This document shows, piece after piece, positions 1-30,727 of a stretch of 30,727 bases of DNA (position 1 is the first letter of the stretch; every line of letters starts with the position of its first letter). The stretch comes from a virus. Both the position numbers and the translations under genes were made by a program. The notes under the pieces are model-generated. The model worked only from the letters and a program-made list of their open reading frames with translations, ran no database searches and was not told the DNA's origin. The stretch lies in IMG/VR virus record IMGVR_UViG_3300045988_150938. The stretch is one strand, 5' to 3'.

Positions 1-665
1 CCCCGGAGCGTCAAATGCCGCCCATTTCCCCCTTCGGGTGAAATGTTCGCCATTGGCTCCGTGGTGCCGACACTTCGGCGCAAGCGCCTTGGTCGCTGTC
101 TGTTCCCTCTTGTTATTTTACTCCTCTATTTTTTATCTTTCCTTATCGGGAACCCTTTGTCCCTTCCGCAAGCGGAACGAACAATCAAGCCTGAAGGCTT
201 GGTCTGTCACGCCGCGGGCATAGCCCTCGGCTACAATCGAACCGCTTCGCTCTCGATTAATCACTATTTTATATAGATTTATCCTTGATATAACAGCTTT
301 TCTTGAATTTTCCGCGTCTGCCGCTTTTTCATTTGAATAGATTTTTATATGAATTAATTTTCTCGCAATTTAATTTCTTATAATTTTGTAAACGTGATAT
401 CTAACCGCTCCTATCTCTTAAACAGCTTCCTATATTTCTATTCACGCGTTCTATTGTTATTTTATTATAATAATTAAATAACATTATTTTACAAACACGA
501 ACTATTTATTGTTTTTTCTATGATTAATAGCCTTATTGTTCGTTTTTATTATATTTACATTCTTATGATATTCTTAATATTTACTATGTAACTTTCTTGA
601 TTACTTTCTTCTTCTCTTCACAAAAAAGCGTTGTATGATTTTTCATACAACGCTTAATTTTTTAC
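1..665. repeat. Left terminal inverted repeat. Positions 1-260 are identical to the reverse complement of 30468-30727 and GC-rich. Positions 261-665 are AT-rich and diverged (~85-90% identical) relative to 30063-30467.
   Basis: ORFs 38..223(+) and 30505..30690(-) translate identically. A manual reverse-complement alignment of both ends shows the first mismatches at position 261. Similarity continues to the hairpin at 627-656. Confidence 0.9.
627..662. terminator. Bidirectional stem-loop (aagcgttgtatg / catacaacgctt) flanked by A/T tracts. It terminates the minus-strand par operon and marks the inner edge of the left inverted repeat.
   Basis: 12-bp perfect stem, 6-7-nt loop, a T-run on the plus strand and an A-run upstream (a T-run on the minus strand). 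Confidence 0.7.
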
Positions 666-2158: not shown

Positions 2159-3061
2159 ATGAGTACAAATCAAAATGAGTTACAAGATAAATTAGCAGTA
2201 GAAGGTGTAAATGCAAATGGCTATGGTGTAATGCCTAAGCTTGTAATGCAAGATAAACGATTAACGATTGAAGCAAAATCAATCTATGCTTACATCGTTA
2301 GTTTTGCTGGCACAGGAAGTACAGCATTTCCTAGCTTACGGAAAATTCTAGAGGACTTACAGATTAGTGAAAAGCGTTTCTACAAACATCGTAAATTGTT
2401 AATTGACTGTAACTATATTTCTGTTACTCAAATTCGTAATGAGAAAAAAGAAATCATCAAAAATTTATACACGTTAATCTCTAATCCGAAAATTGAAGAA
2501 GAAGTACAAGATGAGGGTATCCGTCAAAATGACTGTGACCCTATCCCTCAATTTGACGGATACCCTATCAGTCAAAACGACCGACATAAAAGTAACAGTT
2601 TTAAAATTAACAATATAAAAGATGATGATGATATTAATAACGTATGCGAAGGCAAATTAACTCATGAAAATTTCTCTAACTATTCAACTCAAAAGGGCGT
2701 AGACTGTCCTTTAACAGTTCGAGAACGATTAACAACTGTACTCAAAGGAAAAGACTACTTAGCTCCGTTGGCGGTTTCTTTGCTTGCTGCTGGCGTGTCT
2801 GATGCAGACTGCTTAGAGATTATACAGTTTATTGTTACTTTGCCAGTCATTAATGAAGAAGTATCAGACCTGGTTAATGCACAAATACGTGCGAACGAAA
2901 CAGAAGCTAAAACAAACGGTCTTACTAGCTATAAGGCTTATTTCATTACAGGTTTAAAACAAAAGCTAGAAAATGCCGATATTTTTGTTCAAGAGACAAA
3001 TATTGTGAATCCTGATACAATTAAACCGTTACCAACTGTTACCATGCATAATTGGGTTTAA
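2159..3061 (+). CDS. repA: RepA_N-family plasmid replication initiator (N-terminal winged-helix domain).
   Basis: The N-terminal motif GYGVMPKLVMQDKRLTIEAKSIYAYIVSFAG...AFPSLRKILEDLQISEKRFYKHRKLLIDCNYI matches the RepA_N signature of Firmicutes theta plasmids. RBS ggaggggt is 6 nt upstream. The repeats at 1914-2062 lie upstream. Confidence 0.75.
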   Translation: MSTNQNELQDKLAVEGVNANGYGVMPKLVMQDKRLTIEAKSIYAYIVSFAGTGSTAFPSLRKILEDLQISEKRFYKHRKLLIDCNYISVTQIRNEKKEIIKNLYTLISNPKIEEEVQDEGIRQNDCDPIPQFDGYPISQNDRHKSNSFKINNIKDDDDINNVCEGKLTHENFSNYSTQKGVDCPLTVRERLTTVLKGKDYLAPLAVSLLAAGVSDADCLEIIQFIVTLPVINEEVSDLVNAQIRANETEAKTNGLTSYKAYFITGLKQKLENADIFVQETNIVNPDTIKPLPTVTMHNWV

Positions 3062-8159: not shown

Positions 8160-9059
8160 ATGAAAAATATACAACCTTACTTTTCTCATGATAGCAATGC
8201 ACGAAATTCTGATGAGTTAATTCCAGTACGCATGAAATTTGGTGCAGAAGGTTATGGCGTATATTTTATGTTGTTAGAACGATTAAGGGAAGAAGGAAAC
8301 TACACGAGTATCAAAGATTATAATACGATAGCCTTTGATCTTCGTGTAGATACTTCAATCATTAAATCAGTTATTGAAGACTTTGGGTTATTTGCCTTCA
8401 CCGAAGACGGTGAGTGTTTTTACTCCGAAGGCTTGAATAAACGAATGGCCTTTATGGAAGAAAAATCAAAAAAACGTTCTGAAGCAGGTAGAAAAGGCGC
8501 TGAAAAACGCTGGTCACAAAATCAAAATGAGTCAAATGCTATGAATGAGGAAAATAAAAATATAGCAAAAAAAAGGCAAACGGATAGCAATGCTATAGCA
8601 AAGCCATCTAAAAAAAATAGCAAACCTAAAAATGCTAATGCGATTGCTACCGAAAAAAATAGCAATAAAATAAAAGAAAATAAAAACAAAGAAAATAAAA
8701 TAAAAACAAAAGAAACTGCTGCTTATTCTAGTATAGATAAGACAAAAGATAGTAAAGCTGTTTCCTACTGGTTAACTCAAGTCCACCCAGCAGAAGCACC
8801 AACGATTATGGAATCGATTAATTTTTGGGTAGAAGATTTTGGAGGATATGACGAAATTGTTATATTGGCCATTGATGAAATGTTGAAAAATGGGGCTAAG
8901 AGCTATAACTATTTGGATACCATTCTAAAATCTTGGGAAACAAAAAAACTAGATACACCTGAAAAGGTGAAAAAACATTTATCTGGTTATTATAACAAGC
9001 GCAAGAATGATAATAACCAAAAAGGTGGGAGTATGAGTGACTGGGACGAATTACTTTGA
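8160..9059 (+). CDS. Phage replisome-organizer-type replication protein. It has an N-terminal DUF4373 (Lin1244/Lin1753-like) domain and a C-terminal DnaD-like (DnaB_2) domain, joined by a Lys/Asn-rich low-complexity linker.
   Basis: N-terminal YFSHDSNARNSDELI...GAEGYGVYFMLLERL. C-terminal YWLTQVHPAEAPTIMESINFWVEDFGGYDEIVILAIDEMLKNGAKSYNYLDTILKSWE. Confidence 0.75.
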   Translation: MKNIQPYFSHDSNARNSDELIPVRMKFGAEGYGVYFMLLERLREEGNYTSIKDYNTIAFDLRVDTSIIKSVIEDFGLFAFTEDGECFYSEGLNKRMAFMEEKSKKRSEAGRKGAEKRWSQNQNESNAMNEENKNIAKKRQTDSNAIAKPSKKNSKPKNANAIATEKNSNKIKENKNKENKIKTKETAAYSSIDKTKDSKAVSYWLTQVHPAEAPTIMESINFWVEDFGGYDEIVILAIDEMLKNGAKSYNYLDTILKSWETKKLDTPEKVKKHLSGYYNKRKNDNNQKGGSMSDWDELL

Positions 9060-9918
9060 GTATTTATCACAAGTGCATGAAATAGACGAACGTTGCGAGA
9101 TTCACGGTACTCGATTAAAAGTTTTTAAAGACTTTGAACCGTTTTGTCTAGCTTGTAGGGAAGAACGTATCAGGGAAGAAGAACAAAAGAGATTCGAACA
9201 AGCTTTTGACAGGAAGAAGCGACGGACTACACAAGAGGTTCTTTTAAAGGACAGCGTTTATACTGATTCAACACTGCAATCCGCTTGCTTTGAAAATTAC
9301 CATGCGAAACCAGGTACTGAAGCAGAACAGGCCAAAGAATTTGCTATAAATCAAGCAAGGGAGTATTACCGATTACGTTTAGAAAATAATAAATCAATTG
9401 AGCAAGAACAAGAAGAGCAACAGCCAGCATTTACTACGGTCTTTAGTGGACCAGTTGGCGTTGGAAAAAGTCATTTAGCAATGAGTATTTTAAAAAAATT
9501 GAATGAATATAACGATTTGACTTACTCGTGTTTATTTTTCAGTCTGGATCAATTATTGAGACGTATTCGAAATAGTTATGACGATGAAAGTGAGTATCTT
9601 ACTGAAGCAAGAGCGGTACAACTGGCGCTGGACGCTGATTATTTTGTACTTGATGATTTAGGAGCAGAGGTAGGAAGCATTGAAACGAATAAGCGAGCTA
9701 CTGACTTTATGATTCGGGTATTAAATGCAATCGTTGATGGTCGCCAAGGAAAAGGATTGATTATTACAACGAATCTAACAAACTTACAGATTCAAGCAAT
9801 TTATGGTCATCGTATTTACAGTCGCTTATTTGCAAACTCAAAAAATCATTTGTTTATTTTCAATGACGAACGACAAACACCAGACTATCGATTAATGGGC
9901 GGTGAAAAAAATGTGTAA
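9037..9918 (+). CDS. DnaI/DnaC-like helicase-loader AAA+ ATPase (IstB-like) with an N-terminal Cys/His zinc-binding region.
   Basis: Walker A FSGPVGVGKSHLA, Walker B YFVLDDLGAE, and N-terminal CEIHGT...CLACREE. Overlaps the upstream gene by 23 nt. Confidence 0.8.
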   Translation: MTGTNYFEYLSQVHEIDERCEIHGTRLKVFKDFEPFCLACREERIREEEQKRFEQAFDRKKRRTTQEVLLKDSVYTDSTLQSACFENYHAKPGTEAEQAKEFAINQAREYYRLRLENNKSIEQEQEEQQPAFTTVFSGPVGVGKSHLAMSILKKLNEYNDLTYSCLFFSLDQLLRRIRNSYDDESEYLTEARAVQLALDADYFVLDDLGAEVGSIETNKRATDFMIRVLNAIVDGRQGKGLIITTNLTNLQIQAIYGHRIYSRLFANSKNHLFIFNDERQTPDYRLMGGEKNV

Positions 9919-11056: not shown

Positions 11057-11620
11057 ATGGCAAAATTCCAGAATGTATTTAAAGAAGCAAGTCGACGCAT
11101 GAAAAATTTCCAAGCTCGTGGCTTTATTCCATCAGGTTCTAAGTATGTTTTCCAAGATTTTGTCAATGAAGTATCGGCAGAGAATAGAGGAGAAAACTAT
11201 ACAGGTGCTTATACAAAGAATGCATACAATCAAGCCTATGGATCAAATATAGATTACGATTCTTCAGAAACTTTTCAAGAGATTCAACAAGGTCGAAATG
11301 AAAAACTCGTTCAAATTTACCAAAAAGAATTACTAGAAATTTATCATACGAATGATTTCTATGATATGGCATCTGATTACGGAAATGGCCGAGGAGGAGG
11401 TTTTTCACCTTCTGGAGTAATGAATATTGATACTCTTGAAGGATTAATTGATAATGCAAGCGAAGCTATGAATGTAGAGCCTTATCTATTTAGAAATAAA
11501 GTAGGGCGTAATAGAAGTGAAGAATCTAGTATGATGGACACATATCAAAATCAATTCATCGAAGAGTTAGGTCGTTTAATCGATGAAATGAGCGAACAAA
11601 AAATGAAATTTAAATACTAA
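11057..11620 (+). CDS. Hypothetical protein (187 aa), first gene after the putative late promoter.
   Basis: RBS acaggaga is 7 nt upstream. No recognisable motif. Confidence 0.6.
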   Translation: MAKFQNVFKEASRRMKNFQARGFIPSGSKYVFQDFVNEVSAENRGENYTGAYTKNAYNQAYGSNIDYDSSETFQEIQQGRNEKLVQIYQKELLEIYHTNDFYDMASDYGNGRGGGFSPSGVMNIDTLEGLIDNASEAMNVEPYLFRNKVGRNRSEESSMMDTYQNQFIEELGRLIDEMSEQKMKFKY

Positions 11621-11636
11621 AAGTTAGGTGGAACTT

Positions 11637-12638
11637 ATGAGCAATGAGGTAATGAAATCTGATGCATTTCAAAAAAAAGTAAAAACAATGTTAGGATTAA
11701 CTTATTTAACACGTGCCAAATTAGATGGATTTAACGGAAACCACTATATTTTGAAAGACATCTATGTAAATTCTACTAAAAATACTTCGCAAATCCATTA
11801 CCTTGGATGGGATGATCCACAAAAAATCCCTTTTTATCCTGATACAGATAGTTATCGTGGAGCAACTTCAGGAAGCAAGTATAACAAAGAGTTACTTGTT
11901 CCTAATGAACGAATGATTGAATATGATTTTGCTGAAGCATATACAAATATCATGAGAAACTATAAACTGCCATCGAATGTATACCTAGAAAATGTGCGTT
12001 TTGACAAAGAAAAATTATTAGAGCGGTTAGTTAGTTATGATAAACCTCAACCATACAAAGAATTATCAACGTTCGTTTTTGTAAAAGTTGCCATTGAAGC
12101 AATTGCAAAAGAAAGTACGTATACTGCTTTTGGTTCACATTTTCAACAATATCGAAAAAATCTTAGTCGTACATTAACAGTTACTGAAATTGAATTAAAG
12201 TTAATTATGGATTTTTATGATGTAAAAGCATTAGAAATACTAGAAACGTATACTTTCCGAACACGTAAAGGACTGTTAGAAGATTATTTTGAAAAAATTG
12301 ATCGACTAAAAGAGGATGAAGAAACAAAATTCTTTTATAAAATGTTACGGAACAAAATTTATGGAACGATTGGTAAACGTGAGTTGTCTACTCACGAAGC
12401 AAAAATATTTAAGTTTCCAATGTATAATCGTGCATTTTCTTCAATGGTAGCTGGCGTGTTTAGAGATAGAATCGCACGCTACGAACAAAAGTATGTAAAT
12501 AGTGAATATGGACTTGTATTAATTAAAACAGACGGCTTGTATTTTAAAAAAGAAGTTCCTGAATTTGAAGCATTAAACAAAAAAGGGATTGTAAAGAAAA
12601 AAGTACATGTTATTACAGACCATGATGTGAAAAATTAA
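11637..12638 (+). CDS. Hypothetical protein (333 aa) directly upstream of the encapsidation ATPase.
   Basis: RBS aggtgg is 6 nt before the ATG at 11637. It contains YPDTDSYRG and KIYGTIGK segments, but not in polymerase order. Confidence 0.6.
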   Translation: MSNEVMKSDAFQKKVKTMLGLTYLTRAKLDGFNGNHYILKDIYVNSTKNTSQIHYLGWDDPQKIPFYPDTDSYRGATSGSKYNKELLVPNERMIEYDFAEAYTNIMRNYKLPSNVYLENVRFDKEKLLERLVSYDKPQPYKELSTFVFVKVAIEAIAKESTYTAFGSHFQQYRKNLSRTLTVTEIELKLIMDFYDVKALEILETYTFRTRKGLLEDYFEKIDRLKEDEETKFFYKMLRNKIYGTIGKRELSTHEAKIFKFPMYNRAFSSMVAGVFRDRIARYEQKYVNSEYGLVLIKTDGLYFKKEVPEFEALNKKGIVKKKVHVITDHDVKN

Positions 12639-12697
12639 AAAAGAAATAAAAAGCGAAGCAGACAAGCTTTGCTTTTTTGATAGAAAGTGTGAAAAGA

Positions 12698-13870
12698 ATG
12701 GAGAAAAATAAATATGAAACGGAAGAAGGTTATTTAAATGTGCCAATCATATGGGAAGAAGTGGAACAATTCGCTTTTTTAGTTGGCGCACGAAACGTAG
12801 GTAAAACTTATGGATTCTTAAATTTTTCAATCAAACGAGGATTAGATACTATTTTAGAATGTTTTGATTTTTCTACACTACAGGAATTTAAAAAATTACC
12901 TACTTTGATGGAAGCAGAATTTCAATTTTTATTTTTACGCCGATATATTACACAAGCTAAGTCTGCCAGTAGAAATTTAGTATTGGCTGATTTTTATCAA
13001 CCATTTTTAGATAAGTTGCCTGAAGAAGTAAAAAAACAATATGAAGTATTTGTAGAATATCAGGGCTCTTCAGAAGAGCCTAGAGAAATACTATTAGTTT
13101 TTAGAAATAAGGAACTAAAAAAAGATAAAAAATGTATTAAATTAGGTTATCTTGGTGCGGTAAGTATGGCAGAAAAATTTAGAGGACCAGGTCTGCCAAA
13201 AGTAAAAGTAATATTATTGGATGAATTTCAATCGAAAAAAAATTGGGATTATTTACCAAATGAACCTGTAGAGCTAGAAGATATTTACGAATCCGTTGGA
13301 CGTTTAAGATGTGGAACTGGAGATATTAAAGTGATTGCATTAGGGAATTCAGGGACAATTTTAAATCCTTATTTTGATTATTATGGATATGACGAATTCA
13401 CGGAGGTTAAAACAGTAAAGCGTGAAGGAGAAGTTCTTTTTTATCATTTACCCAATAAAGCAAAAAGAAGCGAGCAATCTAAAAATTTATTTAAAGGATC
13501 AGCATATGGTAAATATTCATTAGATAATGATTTTGCGGACAATCAGTTATTTAATGTCATTCGTTTAAAAGAAGCAAAAGCACCTCGAAAATGTCTATAT
13601 AATATTTTCTTTGGGGAAACATATATCGGTGTTTGGAGAACAGGAGACTATAAAATTCTAATTAGCCGTGTAAGTGATCCAGATAAATTAGATATTGTTG
13701 ATCGGACACCTATAGAAGAACAAGTGCTAGATCAACAAGTATACAGGGTACTTTCAGATAAATTACAAAACAAACAACTTTATTTTGATTCGCCAGAATT
13801 GAGGTTAATTGCTGAAAAACACTTGCGCAAATATATTTATAATTCTGCGAGTGAATGGGAAACATTTTAA
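12698..13870 (+). CDS. phi29 gp16-like DNA encapsidation ATPase.
   Basis: FLVGARNVGKTYGF is alignable to phi29 FVIGARGIGKSYAM. KVILLDEFQSKKNWDYLPNE...RLRCGTGDIKVIALGNSGTILNPYF is alignable to phi29 IVFDEFIREKDNSNYIPNE...RVRCICLSNAVSVVNPYF. SLDNDFADNQLF matches SLDNQFIGDSQVF. The start is uncertain between TTG 12677 and ATG 12698. Confidence 0.85.
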   Translation: MEKNKYETEEGYLNVPIIWEEVEQFAFLVGARNVGKTYGFLNFSIKRGLDTILECFDFSTLQEFKKLPTLMEAEFQFLFLRRYITQAKSASRNLVLADFYQPFLDKLPEEVKKQYEVFVEYQGSSEEPREILLVFRNKELKKDKKCIKLGYLGAVSMAEKFRGPGLPKVKVILLDEFQSKKNWDYLPNEPVELEDIYESVGRLRCGTGDIKVIALGNSGTILNPYFDYYGYDEFTEVKTVKREGEVLFYHLPNKAKRSEQSKNLFKGSAYGKYSLDNDFADNQLFNVIRLKEAKAPRKCLYNIFFGETYIGVWRTGDYKILISRVSDPDKLDIVDRTPIEEQVLDQQVYRVLSDKLQNKQLYFDSPELRLIAEKHLRKYIYNSASEWETF

Positions 13871-13879
13871 CAAATAAAA

Positions 13880-13912
13880 AAACCACTCTATCAAAAATAG
13901 AGTGGTTTTTAC
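13880..13912 (+). terminator. Rho-independent terminator after the ATPase gene (accactctat / atagagtggt followed by ttttt).
   Basis: 10-bp perfect stem plus T-run. Confidence 0.8.
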
Positions 13913-14007
13913 GTTGTCAAGAGGTAAAAATGAGCGAAGTATGTCGCATTGATGAGCGATGTACGTCGCTTTTTGATTTTTTCAAAAGAAAACATGCTAA
14001 ACTTCAC

Positions 14008-14036
14008 TTGAAATTTAAAAACTGGTGAAGTAAAAA
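14008..14036 (+). promoter_or_regulatory. Putative sigma-A promoter (ttgaaa, 17 nt, taaaaa) ahead of the fibre/lysis/head operon.
   Basis: Read directly. RBS gaagggagga and ATG follow at 14062. Confidence 0.35.
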
Positions 14037-14061
14037 ACTAAATTTGAAGGGAGGATAGGAA

Positions 14062-29611: not shown

Positions 29612-30073
29612 ATGTCATTACAAACATCTTTGAAAGTAGCTTATCCTGCTATTTTTCATCCAGAAGAGGGTGGAGGATACTTTATTGAATTTCCAGATGT
29701 TCAAGGAGCGTATACAGGTATAAATGAAAATGATATAGCCTATGGTTTATTGATGGCTGAAGAAGTTTTAGGTATGGTGTTAGCTGATTATATTGAAAAT
29801 AATGAGACGTTGCCTAAAGCAAGTGAATTAAATAGTATAAGTCATAAACCTGATGAATTTGTAACTATGGTTTTAGTTGATATAGAAGAATATTTTAAAG
29901 ACATGAAACCAGTAAAAAAGACGCTAACGATCCCAAGTTGGGCCAATAACTGGGGAAATAGAGTAGGAATAAATTTTTCGCAACTGTTAACGGAATCGAT
30001 CGCACAGACAGCAATAAATTACACACAAGAGACATTAAAGGAAACAAAAGAAAAATACGAAGTAAAAAATTAA
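29612..30073 (+). CDS. hicB: HicB-family antitoxin.
   Basis: YPAIFHPEEGGGYFIEFPDVQGAYTGINENDIAYGLLMAEEVL matches the HicB N-terminal RNase-H-like fold signature. RBS aagggagggaa. Confidence 0.8.
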   Translation: MSLQTSLKVAYPAIFHPEEGGGYFIEFPDVQGAYTGINENDIAYGLLMAEEVLGMVLADYIENNETLPKASELNSISHKPDEFVTMVLVDIEEYFKDMKPVKKTLTIPSWANNWGNRVGINFSQLLTESIAQTAINYTQETLKETKEKYEVKN

Positions 30074-30098
30074 GCGTTGTATGAAAAATCATACAACG
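30062..30098. terminator. Bidirectional stem-loop (aacgttgtatg / catacaacgtt followed by tttttt). It is the mirror of the hairpin at 627-662 and the inner edge of the right inverted repeat.
   Basis: Read directly. Partner of the left-arm hairpin. Confidence 0.75.
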
Positions 30099-30727
30099 TT
30101 TTTTTGTGAAGAGAAGAAGAAAGTAACCAAGAAAGTTACATAGCAAATATTAAGAATATCATAAGAATACGAATATGACAAAAACGAACAATACAGCTAT
30201 TAATAATAGAAATAACAATAAATAGTTCGTGTTTTGTAAATAGATGTTATTTAATTATTAACATAAAATAACACTATTATTCAAAAGTAGAAATATAGGA
30301 AACGATTTAAAAGATGCGAACGGTTAGATACTACGTTAACAAAATTATAAGAAATAAAATTGTCAGAAAATTCAGAAATATAAAAATCTATTTAAATGAA
30401 AAAGCGGCAGACGCGGAAAATTAAATAAAAGCTGTTATATCAAGTATAAATCTGTATAAAATAGTAGTTAATCGAGAGCGAAGCGGTTCGATTGTAGCCG
30501 AGGGCTATGCCCGCGGCGTGACAGACCAAGCCTTCAGGCTTGATTGTTCGTTCCGCTTGCGGAAGGGACAAAGGGTTCCCGATAAGGAAAGATAAAAAAT
30601 AGAGGAGTAAAATAACAAGAGGGAACAGACAGCGACCAAGGCGCTTGCGCCGAAGTGTCGGCACCACGGAGCCAATGGCGAACATTTCACCCGAAGGGGG
30701 AAATGGGCGGCATTTGACGCTCCGGGG
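30063..30727. repeat. Right terminal inverted repeat. Positions 30468-30727 are identical to the reverse complement of 1-260. Positions 30063-30467 are the diverged AT-rich part.
   Basis: As for the left repeat. Confidence 0.9.

Follow-up and report, generated by a model that had tools for sequence, protein, structure and literature searches.

The closest described counterparts of the genome ends analyzed here belong to the linear pELF plasmids of Enterococcus faecium and to Streptomyces. The right end of pELF1 resists lambda exonuclease but not ExoIII, and without proteinase K treatment its migration in gels is retarded. It has been reported to carry a protein at the 5′ terminus, its 3′ strand has palindromes with mostly 4-nt loops, and the opposite end of the plasmid is a closed hairpin (PMC6863802). 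In Streptomyces, priming by the terminal protein requires as its single-stranded template a 3′ overhang of about 300 nt with packed palindromes and G:A-closed loops (PMC4513846). Phage phi29 encodes its packaging RNA (pRNA) near one end of the genome and transcribes it toward that end (PMC11476376). In the literature to 2026, the replication of pELF plasmids is stated as not understood, and no terminal-protein or polymerase gene has been named for them.

The window (the whole stretch of 30,727 nucleotides that was analyzed) is, on the grounds of its sequence, a complete linear genome of an EF62phi-type phage-plasmid of Enterococcus faecalis. Positions 1–260 are the exact reverse complement of 30468–30727 at the other genome end, and past 260 the inverted terminal repeat continues with ~90% identity as far as approximately position 700. 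The perfect identity of the 260-bp ends is peculiar to this isolate; the ends of EF62phi differ at 8 positions within 1–245. The GC content is 0.51 in 1–300 vs. 0.24–0.43 elsewhere (mostly ~0.30–0.33, in 300-nt segments). The same start nucleotide, CCCCGGAGCG, was found at six independent sequence ends (both ends of the window, both of EF62phi, and three IMG/VR contigs), and the terminus 5′-CCCC(C)GGAG is shared with pELF. The genome ends look like real, open ends. A blastn search with positions 1–700 against phages and plasmids returned EF62phi-type records only and no other homolog; the pELF ends are too diverged for blastn, and their connection to the window was found via protein homology. 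Exact-pattern scans of IMG/VR with two 17–18-mers revealed three true relatives and several chance matches (L007–L009, L011, and L012), and a scan of species-representative genomes revealed one locus only. In most public records of EF62phi-type elements and of pELF, these ends are cut short or wrongly joined.

The features of the putative telomere, given mainly for the left end, are as follows:
1–260, (−) strand, i.e., the strand with its 3′ end at the terminus: left putative telomere block, GC-rich and packed with hairpins, mapped from GC content, fold z and identity with the right end
30468–30727, (+) strand: right putative telomere block, exact inverted copy of 1–260
1–64 (mirror 30664–30727), (−) strand: terminal compound fold-back, mapped from fold z, the helix list and pELF geometry
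66–79, (−) strand: hairpin gccga-CACT-tcggc
77–88, (−) strand: GCAAGC hairpin 1, ggcgc-AA-gcgcc (GCTTGC when read on the 3′ strand)
100–153: spacer, pyrimidine-rich on the 5′ strand, flanked by GGGAAC/GTTCCC (102–107 with 148–153)
157–184, (−) strand: GCAAGC hairpin 2, ttccgc-AA-gcggaa (164–177), with an outer stem 157–162/179–184
186–201, (−) strand: hairpin caagcc-TGAA-ggcttg
211–231, (−) strand: two-tier hairpin gccg.gggc-ATA-gccc.cggc
235–258, (−) strand: innermost hairpin aatcga...tcgatt
261–700: degenerate inner repeat, AT-rich and unstructured, ~90% identical to 30027–30467, with a bidirectional terminator at 626–655

An earlier interpretation made from the letters of the window (hereafter the sequence-only reading) described a GC-rich terminal block dense in short hairpins. 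This description is borne out by the GC content and by folding that is far better than that of shuffled sequences, and all of the listed hairpins are present: 186–201, gggc-ATA-gccc at 216–226, cgaa-CCGC-ttcg at 238–249, (g)ccga-CACT-tcgg(c) at 66–79, CCC-TTCG-GGG at ~30–38, and those at 77–88 and 164–177. As single-stranded DNA, the 3′-ending strand of 1–260 folds with −60.1 kcal/mol vs. −37.0 ± 3.4 in dinucleotide shuffles (z −6.8), and the 5′-ending strand reaches z −4.0. The adjacent segment 261–520 has z −0.9, so the structure signal is confined to the terminal block. Perfect hairpins with a stem of at least 5 bp number six in 1–260, compared with an interior density of 1.8 per 260 nt. 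The energy parameters may be partly responsible for the stronger fold of the 3′ strand. G–T pairs were ruled out as its cause (1–3 such pairs on either strand); as they do not explain the strand asymmetry, we do not use it as strong evidence. Duplex binding sites are another possible reading of the palindromes.

A feature absent from the sequence-only reading is the compound fold-back that pairs the terminal nucleotides. In its stem, CCCCGGAGC (1–9) is paired with GCTCCGTGG (56–64), with T62 bulged, and inside lies an imperfect hairpin (12–55) with the apex C-GAA-G on the 3′ strand. Folded alone, the segment 1–64 reaches z −5.4 (3′ strand) and −3.2 (5′ strand). Among the 3′-strand loops, CCC-GAA-GGG at the fold-back apex is a predicted triloop; GCTTCGC at 243–249, in the innermost hairpin, reads GCGAAGC on this strand and is drawn differently in the predicted fold. 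The remaining hairpin loops are mostly CTTG or other tetraloops.

The most consistent element of these ends is the GCAAGC hairpin. In the terminal blocks of six lineages, 10 of 11 GCAAGC sites have at least three flanking Watson–Crick pairs (background 0.021), and no hairpin site occurs in the opposite orientation. The stems covary, with all four pair types at each stem position. In each element with a recovered end, the hairpins cluster within ~330 nt of the terminus, and single internal sites are only occasional. In the window, pELF, L015, and L025, the segment CTCCGTGG (CGCCGTGG in L025) is followed by a GCAAGC hairpin after 12–16 nt. Covariation in the terminal stem amounts to one compensatory pair between two lineages, in which C9:G56 of the window becomes G10:C58 in pELF and pairing is kept by the double change. 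The contigs of L015, L018, L020, and L025 begin inside the telomere, short of the terminus, and those of L019, L030, L031, and L041 begin in genes or AT-rich DNA. The predicted partners of the terminal stem are the internal CCTCCGTGG in L015-type relatives and CGCCGTGG in L025-type relatives.

Substitutions between alleles also bear on the suggestion that the block is coding, with ORF 43–276 as a real gene for a 77-aa peptide. An equivalent ORF is annotated in EF62phi (NC_017732), and ORF 43–276 matches phrog_31352; this PHROG family may, however, simply derive from annotations of that ORF in EF62phi-type records. ORF 43–276 matches neither Pfam nor NCBIfam families, six of the seven allele substitutions inside it fall at codon positions 1 or 2, and the homologous ends of the relatives lack the length or the similarity needed to retain it. 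We consider a coding function extremely improbable. The sequence-only reading had regarded the two ORFs of the block (38–223 and 43–276) as non-coding; both ORFs exist, and for 43–276 the substitution pattern agrees with this opinion.

The right ends of pELF1 and pELF2 share with the window the terminus 5′-C(3–5)GGAG, a fold-back of ~65 nt with a bulged T, GCAAGC-centered hairpins in the same orientation, and an AT-rich spacer (equivalent to the spacer 100–153) followed by a hairpin cluster. The pELF right end begins with 5′-CCCCCGGAGG, which pairs with CCTCCGTGGG, in the same way as 5′-CCCCGGAGC and GCTCCGTGG pair in the window. Its 67-nt terminal fold-back has z −5.8, and its 330-nt block reaches z −6.5 for the 3′ strand vs. 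−3.4 for the 5′ strand. Sequence similarity between the two is limited to the GCAAGC cores, the CTCCGTGG segment, and the outermost ~10 nt; the inner ~40 nt of the pELF fold-back, also unrelated in sequence, again form an imperfect hairpin, with the apex C-GTA-G. The pELF block of ~330 nt has four GCAAGC hairpins, whereas the 260-nt block of the window has two. pELF is a conjugative plasmid of 50–210 kb without a detectable homolog of the phage packaging ATPase, and it has an invertron end on one side and a closed hairpin on the other, whereas the phage has the invertron-type end on both sides. Three properties by which we assign an end to the pELF type were found in the window, i.e., the terminal sequence with its fold-back, the short palindromes arrayed along the 3′ strand, and a shared gene pair; the use of shared replication genes for this assignment is proposed in the current analysis and does not come from the literature.

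According to these results, the 260-bp block is probably an invertron-type telomere with protein-capped 5′ ends, which folds when single-stranded and, in a Streptomyces-like manner, recruits a terminal protein and a miniature polymerase. By analogy with the described systems, the phage's own ends would carry a protein cap, and a 3′ overhang with end patching by fill-in may be expected. The sequence-only reading had offered a telomere fold or a protein-recognition structure for end replication as one of its options, and this option gains support from the likeness to the pELF1 right end and from the linked gene pair.

The fold-back itself admits another interpretation, in which the 64-nt imperfect palindrome is a closed loop of the poxvirus or N15 kind or a parvovirus-like 3′ self-priming fold-back. 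The terminal 64 nt do fold back with the 3′ end paired, some assemblies show breaks at position 35 or 65 or head-to-head fusions of the two repeats, and the other end of the pELF plasmids is a closed hairpin. However, the six independent ends stop at the identical nucleotide in one orientation, with no flip/flop forms, and the homologous pELF1 end can be attacked by ExoIII but not by lambda exonuclease. In telomere allele B, the hairpin gccga-CACT-tcggc (66–79) is exchanged for the 10-bp palindrome GTGTCGACAC at 64–73; the head-to-head fusions lie exactly at this palindrome, which fits an assembly artifact. Furthermore, no telomere resolvase or recombinase-sized candidate was found, and the ORFs of at least 400 aa encode capsid, tail, and lysin proteins. 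Closed or self-priming ends are therefore, in our opinion, very improbable.

The comparison of the putative protein-capped telomere with that of Streptomyces indicates the same kind of replicon, i.e., a linear one with, presumably, an internal origin and protein-capped 5′ ends. In both cases, the first few hundred nucleotides consist of packed palindromes with a 3′-strand fold (z −6.8 in the window), the terminus pairs with a segment ~60 nt inward, and the loops are of GNA type. The window also matches, at 243–249, the GCGXAGC motif of actinobacterial invertron telomeres (PMC6863802). The window start CCCCGGAGCG resembles Palindrome I of Streptomyces, CCCGCGGAGCGGG; a one-gap alignment has 10 identical bases among 11. 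It is not itself a 13-nt palindrome, and the terminus of the window is paired with 56–64 instead. The dominant loop is GCTTGC in the window vs. GCA triloops in Streptomyces, and the element here is a tailed phage of a low-GC Firmicute. The enzyme differs as well, being a family-B polymerase domain and not Tap; no match of the Tap/Tpg kind was obtained among the ORFs scanned in general searches of Pfam, NCBIfam, and the PDB.

The genes considered in connection with the ends are the following:
11057–11620, (+) strand: candidate terminal protein, 187 aa, all-helical
11628–12638, (+) strand: miniature phi29-type family-B DNA polymerase domain, 336 aa
8160–9918, (+) strand: replication initiator (DnaB_2/DnaD-like) and DnaC-like loader
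2159–3061: further DnaD-like gene
12677–13870, (+) strand: phi29 gp16-type packaging ATPase, outside the telomere module

The gene pair at 11057–12638 was found in 12 of the 12 loci examined, always with the 187-aa gene upstream of the polymerase gene. Homologs of the 336-aa protein with about 48–49% identity occur in 94 pELF-type plasmids of E. faecium, adjoined by a homolog of the 187-aa protein (33%). The initiator varies among the relatives, being of the DnaD type here and Rep3 or RepL elsewhere. Pfam, NCBIfam, and PHROGs assigned no function to either protein of the pair, although Pfam PF03175 was detected in two homologs of the 336-aa protein. The profile of the 336-aa family has the phi29 DNA polymerase as its sole match in the PDB (E 1.7e-5), and the AlphaFold model (pLDDT 92.8) has the phi29 enzyme as by far its closest structure. 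The protein carries the polymerase-domain fold and the catalytic motifs of phi29-type family-B enzymes: motif A (YD100FAEAY), motif B (K238MLRNKIYG), and motif C (KTD302G). D100, K238, G246, and D302 are invariant in the family and Y105 nearly so; Y245 comes from a manual reading of motif B in the window and lies outside the computed conserved columns. The spacings D100–Y105 and K238–Y245/G246 are those of phi29.

The N-terminal 3′–5′ exonuclease domain is absent, with 99 residues before motif A vs. 249 in phi29. The family has a length of 341–391 aa, and its next-best library matches have 550–660 aa. Just 34 residues follow motif C, so the thumb responsible for processivity in phi29 is probably missing. 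The enzyme could be catalytically reduced, as the first Asp of DTD is replaced by Lys and the KxY and thumb regions are apparently missing. For the 187-aa protein, the fold search gave generic helical bundles only and no known terminal protein, and no similarity in sequence or fold to phi29 gp3 or another known terminal protein was found. Its Ser157 is invariant and lies inside the motif GRxRxxES (GRNRSEES in the window). We infer that it is the terminal protein.

The relationship with phi29 suggests another scenario, of the phi29 and Cp-1 kind, in which replication is initiated at both duplex ends by the terminal protein and the mini-polymerase, and strand displacement carries it through the whole genome. 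The block would then be a long inverted terminal repeat, with palindromes serving as duplex protein-binding sites or panhandle aids rather than as a folded 3′ overhang. The window shares with these phages the polymerase fold, the gene order (small protein, then polymerase), the repeated terminal nucleotide, and a phi29-type capsid, connector, and packaging ATPase. The terminal 5′-CCCC run suits slide-back initiation, and in the relative L030 an SSB gene directly follows the polymerase gene. In phi29, protein-capped DNA is used for packaging. On the other hand, the polymerase of the window has 336 aa vs. 575 aa in phi29, without the exonuclease and probably without the thumb, and the candidate terminal protein is not recognizably related to gp3. 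The same module is found on pELF plasmids of 50–210 kb with a closed hairpin at the other end. A plasmid-type initiator is present in every relative and swapped between lineages, and the phage of the window adds to the phi29-type head and connector plasmid-type initiators, ParA, and a toxin–antitoxin pair. The terminal repeat of phi29 is 6 bp long and free of hairpin arrays, whereas the window has a 260-bp block with hairpins; to our knowledge, packed hairpins do not occur in phi29-type origins. In addition, the loop orientation is fixed in 10 of 10 cases, which points to the reading of a single strand. We therefore regard replication of the whole genome from the two ends as unlikely, although it deserves more weight than closed ends.

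For the telomere reading, a plausible scenario can be proposed as follows. Bulk replication would begin at an internal plasmid-type origin with the DnaD/DnaB_2-like initiator and the DnaC-like loader and proceed to the ends, and the 3′-ending strand of each telomere would be left unpaired. This strand could form the ~65-nt terminal fold-back that presents the 3′-GGGG end and, farther inward, a series of short hairpins, several with the constant GCTTGC center and two sites with GAA closed by C–G. The folded strand would be recognized by the products of 11057–12638, the 187-aa candidate terminal protein and the 336-aa exonuclease-less polymerase. Opposite the 3′ G run, where the C/G run would permit slide-back, the polymerase may join dCMP to the terminal protein; it may then fill in the end, alone or with hand-over to a host polymerase. 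The protein would remain on the 5′ end, which would suit phi29-type packaging of protein-capped DNA.

A broader proposal, to which we give slightly less than even weight, is that the phage-plasmid and pELF have a portable telomere module in common. It would consist of a folding end, a new terminal protein, and a PolB of ~340 aa for protein-primed patching, with interchangeable plasmid origins for copying the bulk of the replicon. If this is true, it would represent Streptomyces-style end patching in low-GC Firmicutes, the first with a PolB, and the ~340-aa enzyme would be among the smallest family-B polymerases of which we are aware. It would also identify the telomere-replication genes that have long been missing for the pELF plasmids, linear plasmids that carry vancomycin and linezolid resistance through hospital Enterococcus faecium. 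By tying the phage end to the pELF end, and both to one gene pair, our analysis provides concrete candidates for the terminal protein and the mini-polymerase, together with a defined DNA substrate (the 64-nt fold-back and the GCTTGC hairpins). The proposal would further show that a phage of the phi29 lineage can persist as a linear plasmid when plasmid-type replication is joined to telomeres that are protein-capped and rich in hairpins, that family-B polymerases can be reduced to ~340 residues, and that the hairpin-array answer of actinomycetes to the end-replication problem also exists in Firmicutes with a different enzyme.

The other option of the sequence-only reading was a structured terminal RNA, i.e., an outward promoter at the interior border of the block that yields a run-off pRNA analog assembling on the phi29-type packaging motor. 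The gp16-like ATPase on which this option was based does exist (12677–13870), next to a phi29-type connector, and like the phi29 pRNA (RF00044) the block is highly structured and lies near a genome end. The outward RNA (290 nt) folds well (z −5.3), but its sequence equals that of the 3′ strand, so folding cannot separate RNA from single-stranded DNA. Rfam gave no match to the RF00044 covariance model at the gathering score, nor in permissive scans of 1–800 (E ≤ 10) and of the whole window (E ≤ 1), i.e., none at any threshold. The −10-like strings noted in that reading exist (the reverse complement of 266–275, and 30453–30462), but no sigma-70-type match was found there; they sit in the diverged portion of the repeat and differ between the arms, and the outward strand at 264–290 has no consensus promoter of this type. 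Unlike the phi29 pRNA, the element is duplicated at both ends and takes in the terminal nucleotides with the conserved 5′-CCCCGGAG terminus, and in the relative L015 the GC-rich end portion is just ~75 nt.

Homologs of the gp16-type ATPase were found only in 18 EF62phi-type plasmids and one Clostridium plasmid, and none was detected in the pELF plasmids (the ATPase was the one phage gene searched). As the pELF plasmids share the end architecture without a detectable homolog of this ATPase, a packaging RNA cannot be the conserved function. As far as the sequence tells, an outward transcript may exist; no result here requires one. We judge a packaging RNA to be about as improbable as closed ends, and the terminal block is most likely a protein-capped telomere rather than a packaging RNA; overall, the interpretation of the sequence-only reading is partly supported. 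The structured gap after the ATPase gene (13871–14061) was also considered as a pRNA and proved to be a pair of terminators.

The window represents a complete linear genome of 30,727 bp, and records of the Enterococcus faecalis element "EF62phi" are 98–99% identical to it over most of its length. In the literature EF62phi is described as a linear extrachromosomal, pseudolysogenic phage, and a 2024 review of phi29-like phages classed EF62phi-type elements as phage-plasmids. The window's major capsid protein and connector are of phi29 type and its ATPase of gp16 type. It also carries genes for HicAB, a CI-like repressor and ParA, the last with a DUF5388 partner, and, for replication, a DnaD-like protein and a DnaC-like loader that accompanies a DnaB_2/DnaD-type initiator. 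Neither annotation nor searches revealed a telomere resolvase, a recombinase or a full-length DNA polymerase in the window. Between parA and the DnaD-like gene lies a possible origin or operator, a 63-nt inverted repeat (1910–1972 / 2004–2066) whose arms are 73% identical and 31 nt apart. The genes that bear on replication are as follows:

2159–3061, DnaD-like gene
8160–9918, initiator–loader region
11057–11620, plus strand, 187-aa ORF, candidate terminal protein
11628–12638, plus strand, 336-aa ORF, mini-polymerase

At each end of the genome stands one copy of an inverted terminal repeat of roughly 700 bp; in this isolate the two copies match exactly over the outermost 260 bp and are about 90% identical over the remainder. 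The identical part coincides with a GC-rich block (GC 0.51 versus about 0.30 in most of the genome), in which every hairpin listed by the sequence-only reading was found. Folded as single-stranded DNA, the strand of the block that ends 3' at the terminus reached −60.1 kcal/mol versus −37.0 ± 3.4 in shuffles (z −6.8), with z −4.0 for the opposite strand and −5.3 for an outward RNA. The adjoining 260 nt of the repeat gave z −0.9; therefore, the structure is real, strong and limited to the terminal block. Nucleotides 1–64 form a single compound fold-back, with 1–9 paired to 56–64 (z −5.4). In the degenerate part of the repeat, a bidirectional terminator with a 13-bp stem (626–655, mirror about 30073–30102) lies directly downstream of the DUF5388 partition gene.

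Neither of the two ORFs immediately upstream of the ATPase gene matched a Pfam or NCBIfam family. The 336-aa product showed a weak match to phi29 DNA polymerase that included motif B, and a profile built from 29 homologues had phi29 DNA polymerase as its sole PDB match (E 1.7e-5). Four motif residues do not vary in the family: D100 in motif A, K238 and G246 in motif B, and D302 in motif C; Y105 is nearly constant as well. The D100–Y105 and K238–Y245/G246 spacings are those of phi29, Y245 being assigned by reading the window sequence and absent from the computed conserved-column lists. With just 99 residues ahead of motif A and 34 beyond motif C, the protein has no exonuclease domain and, judging from length, no thumb; this is a mini-polymerase without proofreading, and processivity elements are probably missing too. 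The family is very rare in public data: a set of 1.84 billion cluster representatives includes four full-length members, and the matches that come after these are ordinary protein-primed polymerases of 550–660 aa. These family-B polymerase domains of about 340 aa without an exonuclease domain form an unannotated family, always encoded behind a helical protein of 170–264 aa. In the window this partner is the 187-aa protein, which is helical and had no fold match among known terminal proteins; its Ser157, 30 residues short of the C-terminus, is invariant. We infer that the 187-aa protein is the terminal protein. The gene pair was constant at all 12 loci examined.

Using tblastn, homologues of the 336-aa protein (about 48% identity) were found in 94 Enterococcus faecium plasmids of 50–210 kb, which are pELF-type linear plasmids. 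In these, too, a homologue of the 187-aa ORF (33% identity, E 1e-32) precedes the polymerase homologue, and the two genes are located some 11 kb from the right end. The pELF candidate terminal protein (264 aa; L014, 3185–3979) has a duplicated N-terminal module of about 78 residues. The pair also occurs at 9434–11104 in L027 (ENA k141_370358), a 30-kb contig without phage genes whose cargo comprises a sortase, very large surface proteins and a tyrosine recombinase; therefore, the module is tied neither to phages nor to pELF.

The right end of pELF1 is lambda exonuclease resistant, ExoIII sensitive and gel-retarded unless protease-treated, which points to a 5'-bound protein, and its 3' strand was noted to contain palindromes with 4-nt loops (PMC6863802). 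The fullest pELF right ends begin 5'-CCCCCGGAGG, and the window 5'-CCCCGGAGC. In both, the terminus pairs with a segment about 56 nt inward (GCTCCGTGG in the window, CCTCCGTGGG in pELF), leaving the same bulged T in the terminal stem; at the sole differing stem position C:G is replaced by G:C, a change on both sides. Inside the stem, some 40 nt of unrelated sequence nonetheless form an imperfect hairpin in each, and the 3'-strand triloop is C-GAA-G in the window versus C-GTA-G in pELF. The pELF block is likewise structured (z −6.5 for the 3' strand, −3.4 for the 5' strand, −5.8 for the fold-back), and the order in both is fold-back, GCAAGC-centred hairpin, AT-rich spacer and hairpin cluster. 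We compared six lineages: the window phage, pELF, and L015, L018, L020 and L025, more distant phi29-capsid phage-plasmids found via the polymerase. At least three complementary pairs flank 10 of the 11 GCAAGC sites in their terminal blocks (background 0.021), all four pair types being seen at each stem position. No site in these blocks had the opposite orientation. Apart from its AA/TT centre the site is palindromic, and the constancy of that orientation speaks for a loop read from a single strand rather than for a symmetric duplex site.

The proposal that the block encodes an analogue of the phi29 packaging RNA (pRNA) was not sustained. There was no Rfam pRNA match at the gathering score, nor in permissive scans at E ≤ 10 (1–800) or E ≤ 1 (whole window). 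We regard as decisive that pELF ends have the same design, yet tblastn revealed no homologue of the gp16-type packaging ATPase in pELF-type plasmids. The outward promoter suggested for this transcript fared no better: no promoter-like site faces outward near 264–290, and the supposed −10 element falls where the two repeat copies have diverged. In the gap 3' of the packaging ATPase gene (13871–14061), two strong hairpins stand in tandem with a U run after each (RNA z −5.5), and there is a sub-threshold Rfam match to Enterococcus sRNA A9 at 13851–13909; these look like terminators, not pRNA.

By analogy, the closest worked-out precedent is Streptomyces, in which replication that starts at an internal origin ends with a 3' overhang of about 300 nt with packed palindromes and G:A-closed loops, the obligatory single-stranded template for Tap/Tpg protein-primed synthesis, duplex DNA being inactive (PMC4513846). 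Streptomyces Palindrome I, CCCGCGGAGCGGG, is close to the window terminus. Under such logic the genome would replicate internally and its ends would then be patched on a folded 3' overhang; the phage's own ends would bear both this overhang and a protein cap. Every relative with a recognisable initiator has one of plasmid type that varies by lineage (DnaD-type in the window, Rep3 in L015, L018, L020 and a further relative, L019, RepL in L025), and RepB is reported for pELF1 and pELF2. Among relatives that share capsid, ATPase and telomere genes, one initiator module has been exchanged for another, and the telomere gene pair has been retained. The main rival, copying of the whole genome from its ends by strand displacement, seems unlikely to us, given these varying initiators beside a constant gene pair, a polymerase without proofreading and probably without processivity elements, and the use of the module at a single end by pELF plasmids as large as 210 kb. 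On the same grounds, we consider a telomere with a terminal protein and patching of a folded 3' overhang, taken as a whole, the fairly probable account. Hairpin-array invertron telomeres are already known as a structure type; what appears new is their presence on a tailed phage, the tie to pELF and the pairing with a miniature family-B polymerase. In the searchable literature to August 2026, pELF replication is described as still needing study, and the pELF papers covered name no terminal-protein or polymerase gene.

Six independent sequence ends share one starting nucleotide, CCCCGGAGCG (the window twice, EF62phi twice, three IMG/VR contigs). Many other records start at positions 35–250, which fits the way long-read assemblies are known to lose structured telomeres (bioRxiv 10.1101/2025.10.14.682034); the first 8–250 nt are missing from most EF62phi-type and many pELF records, and one pELF fragment, L021 (NZ_LR134112.1), opens with the Nextera adapter AGATGTGTATAAGAGACAG at 1–19. 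Two records, L002 (LR962216.1, 1254–1746) and L003 (LR962135.1, 863–2137), show head-to-head fusion of the repeat at position 65. Both have a second telomere allele, with the palindrome GTGTCGACAC at 64–73, the fusion site; assembly fold-back, rather than a closed hairpin, best explains the fusions. The two alleles in circulation differ at positions 55, 67, 75, 95, 110, 121 and 131. Allele A stands at both window ends, whereas EF62phi (L001) has A at the left and B at the right; with a further record, L006, also compared, ends seem to have been exchanged between genomes.
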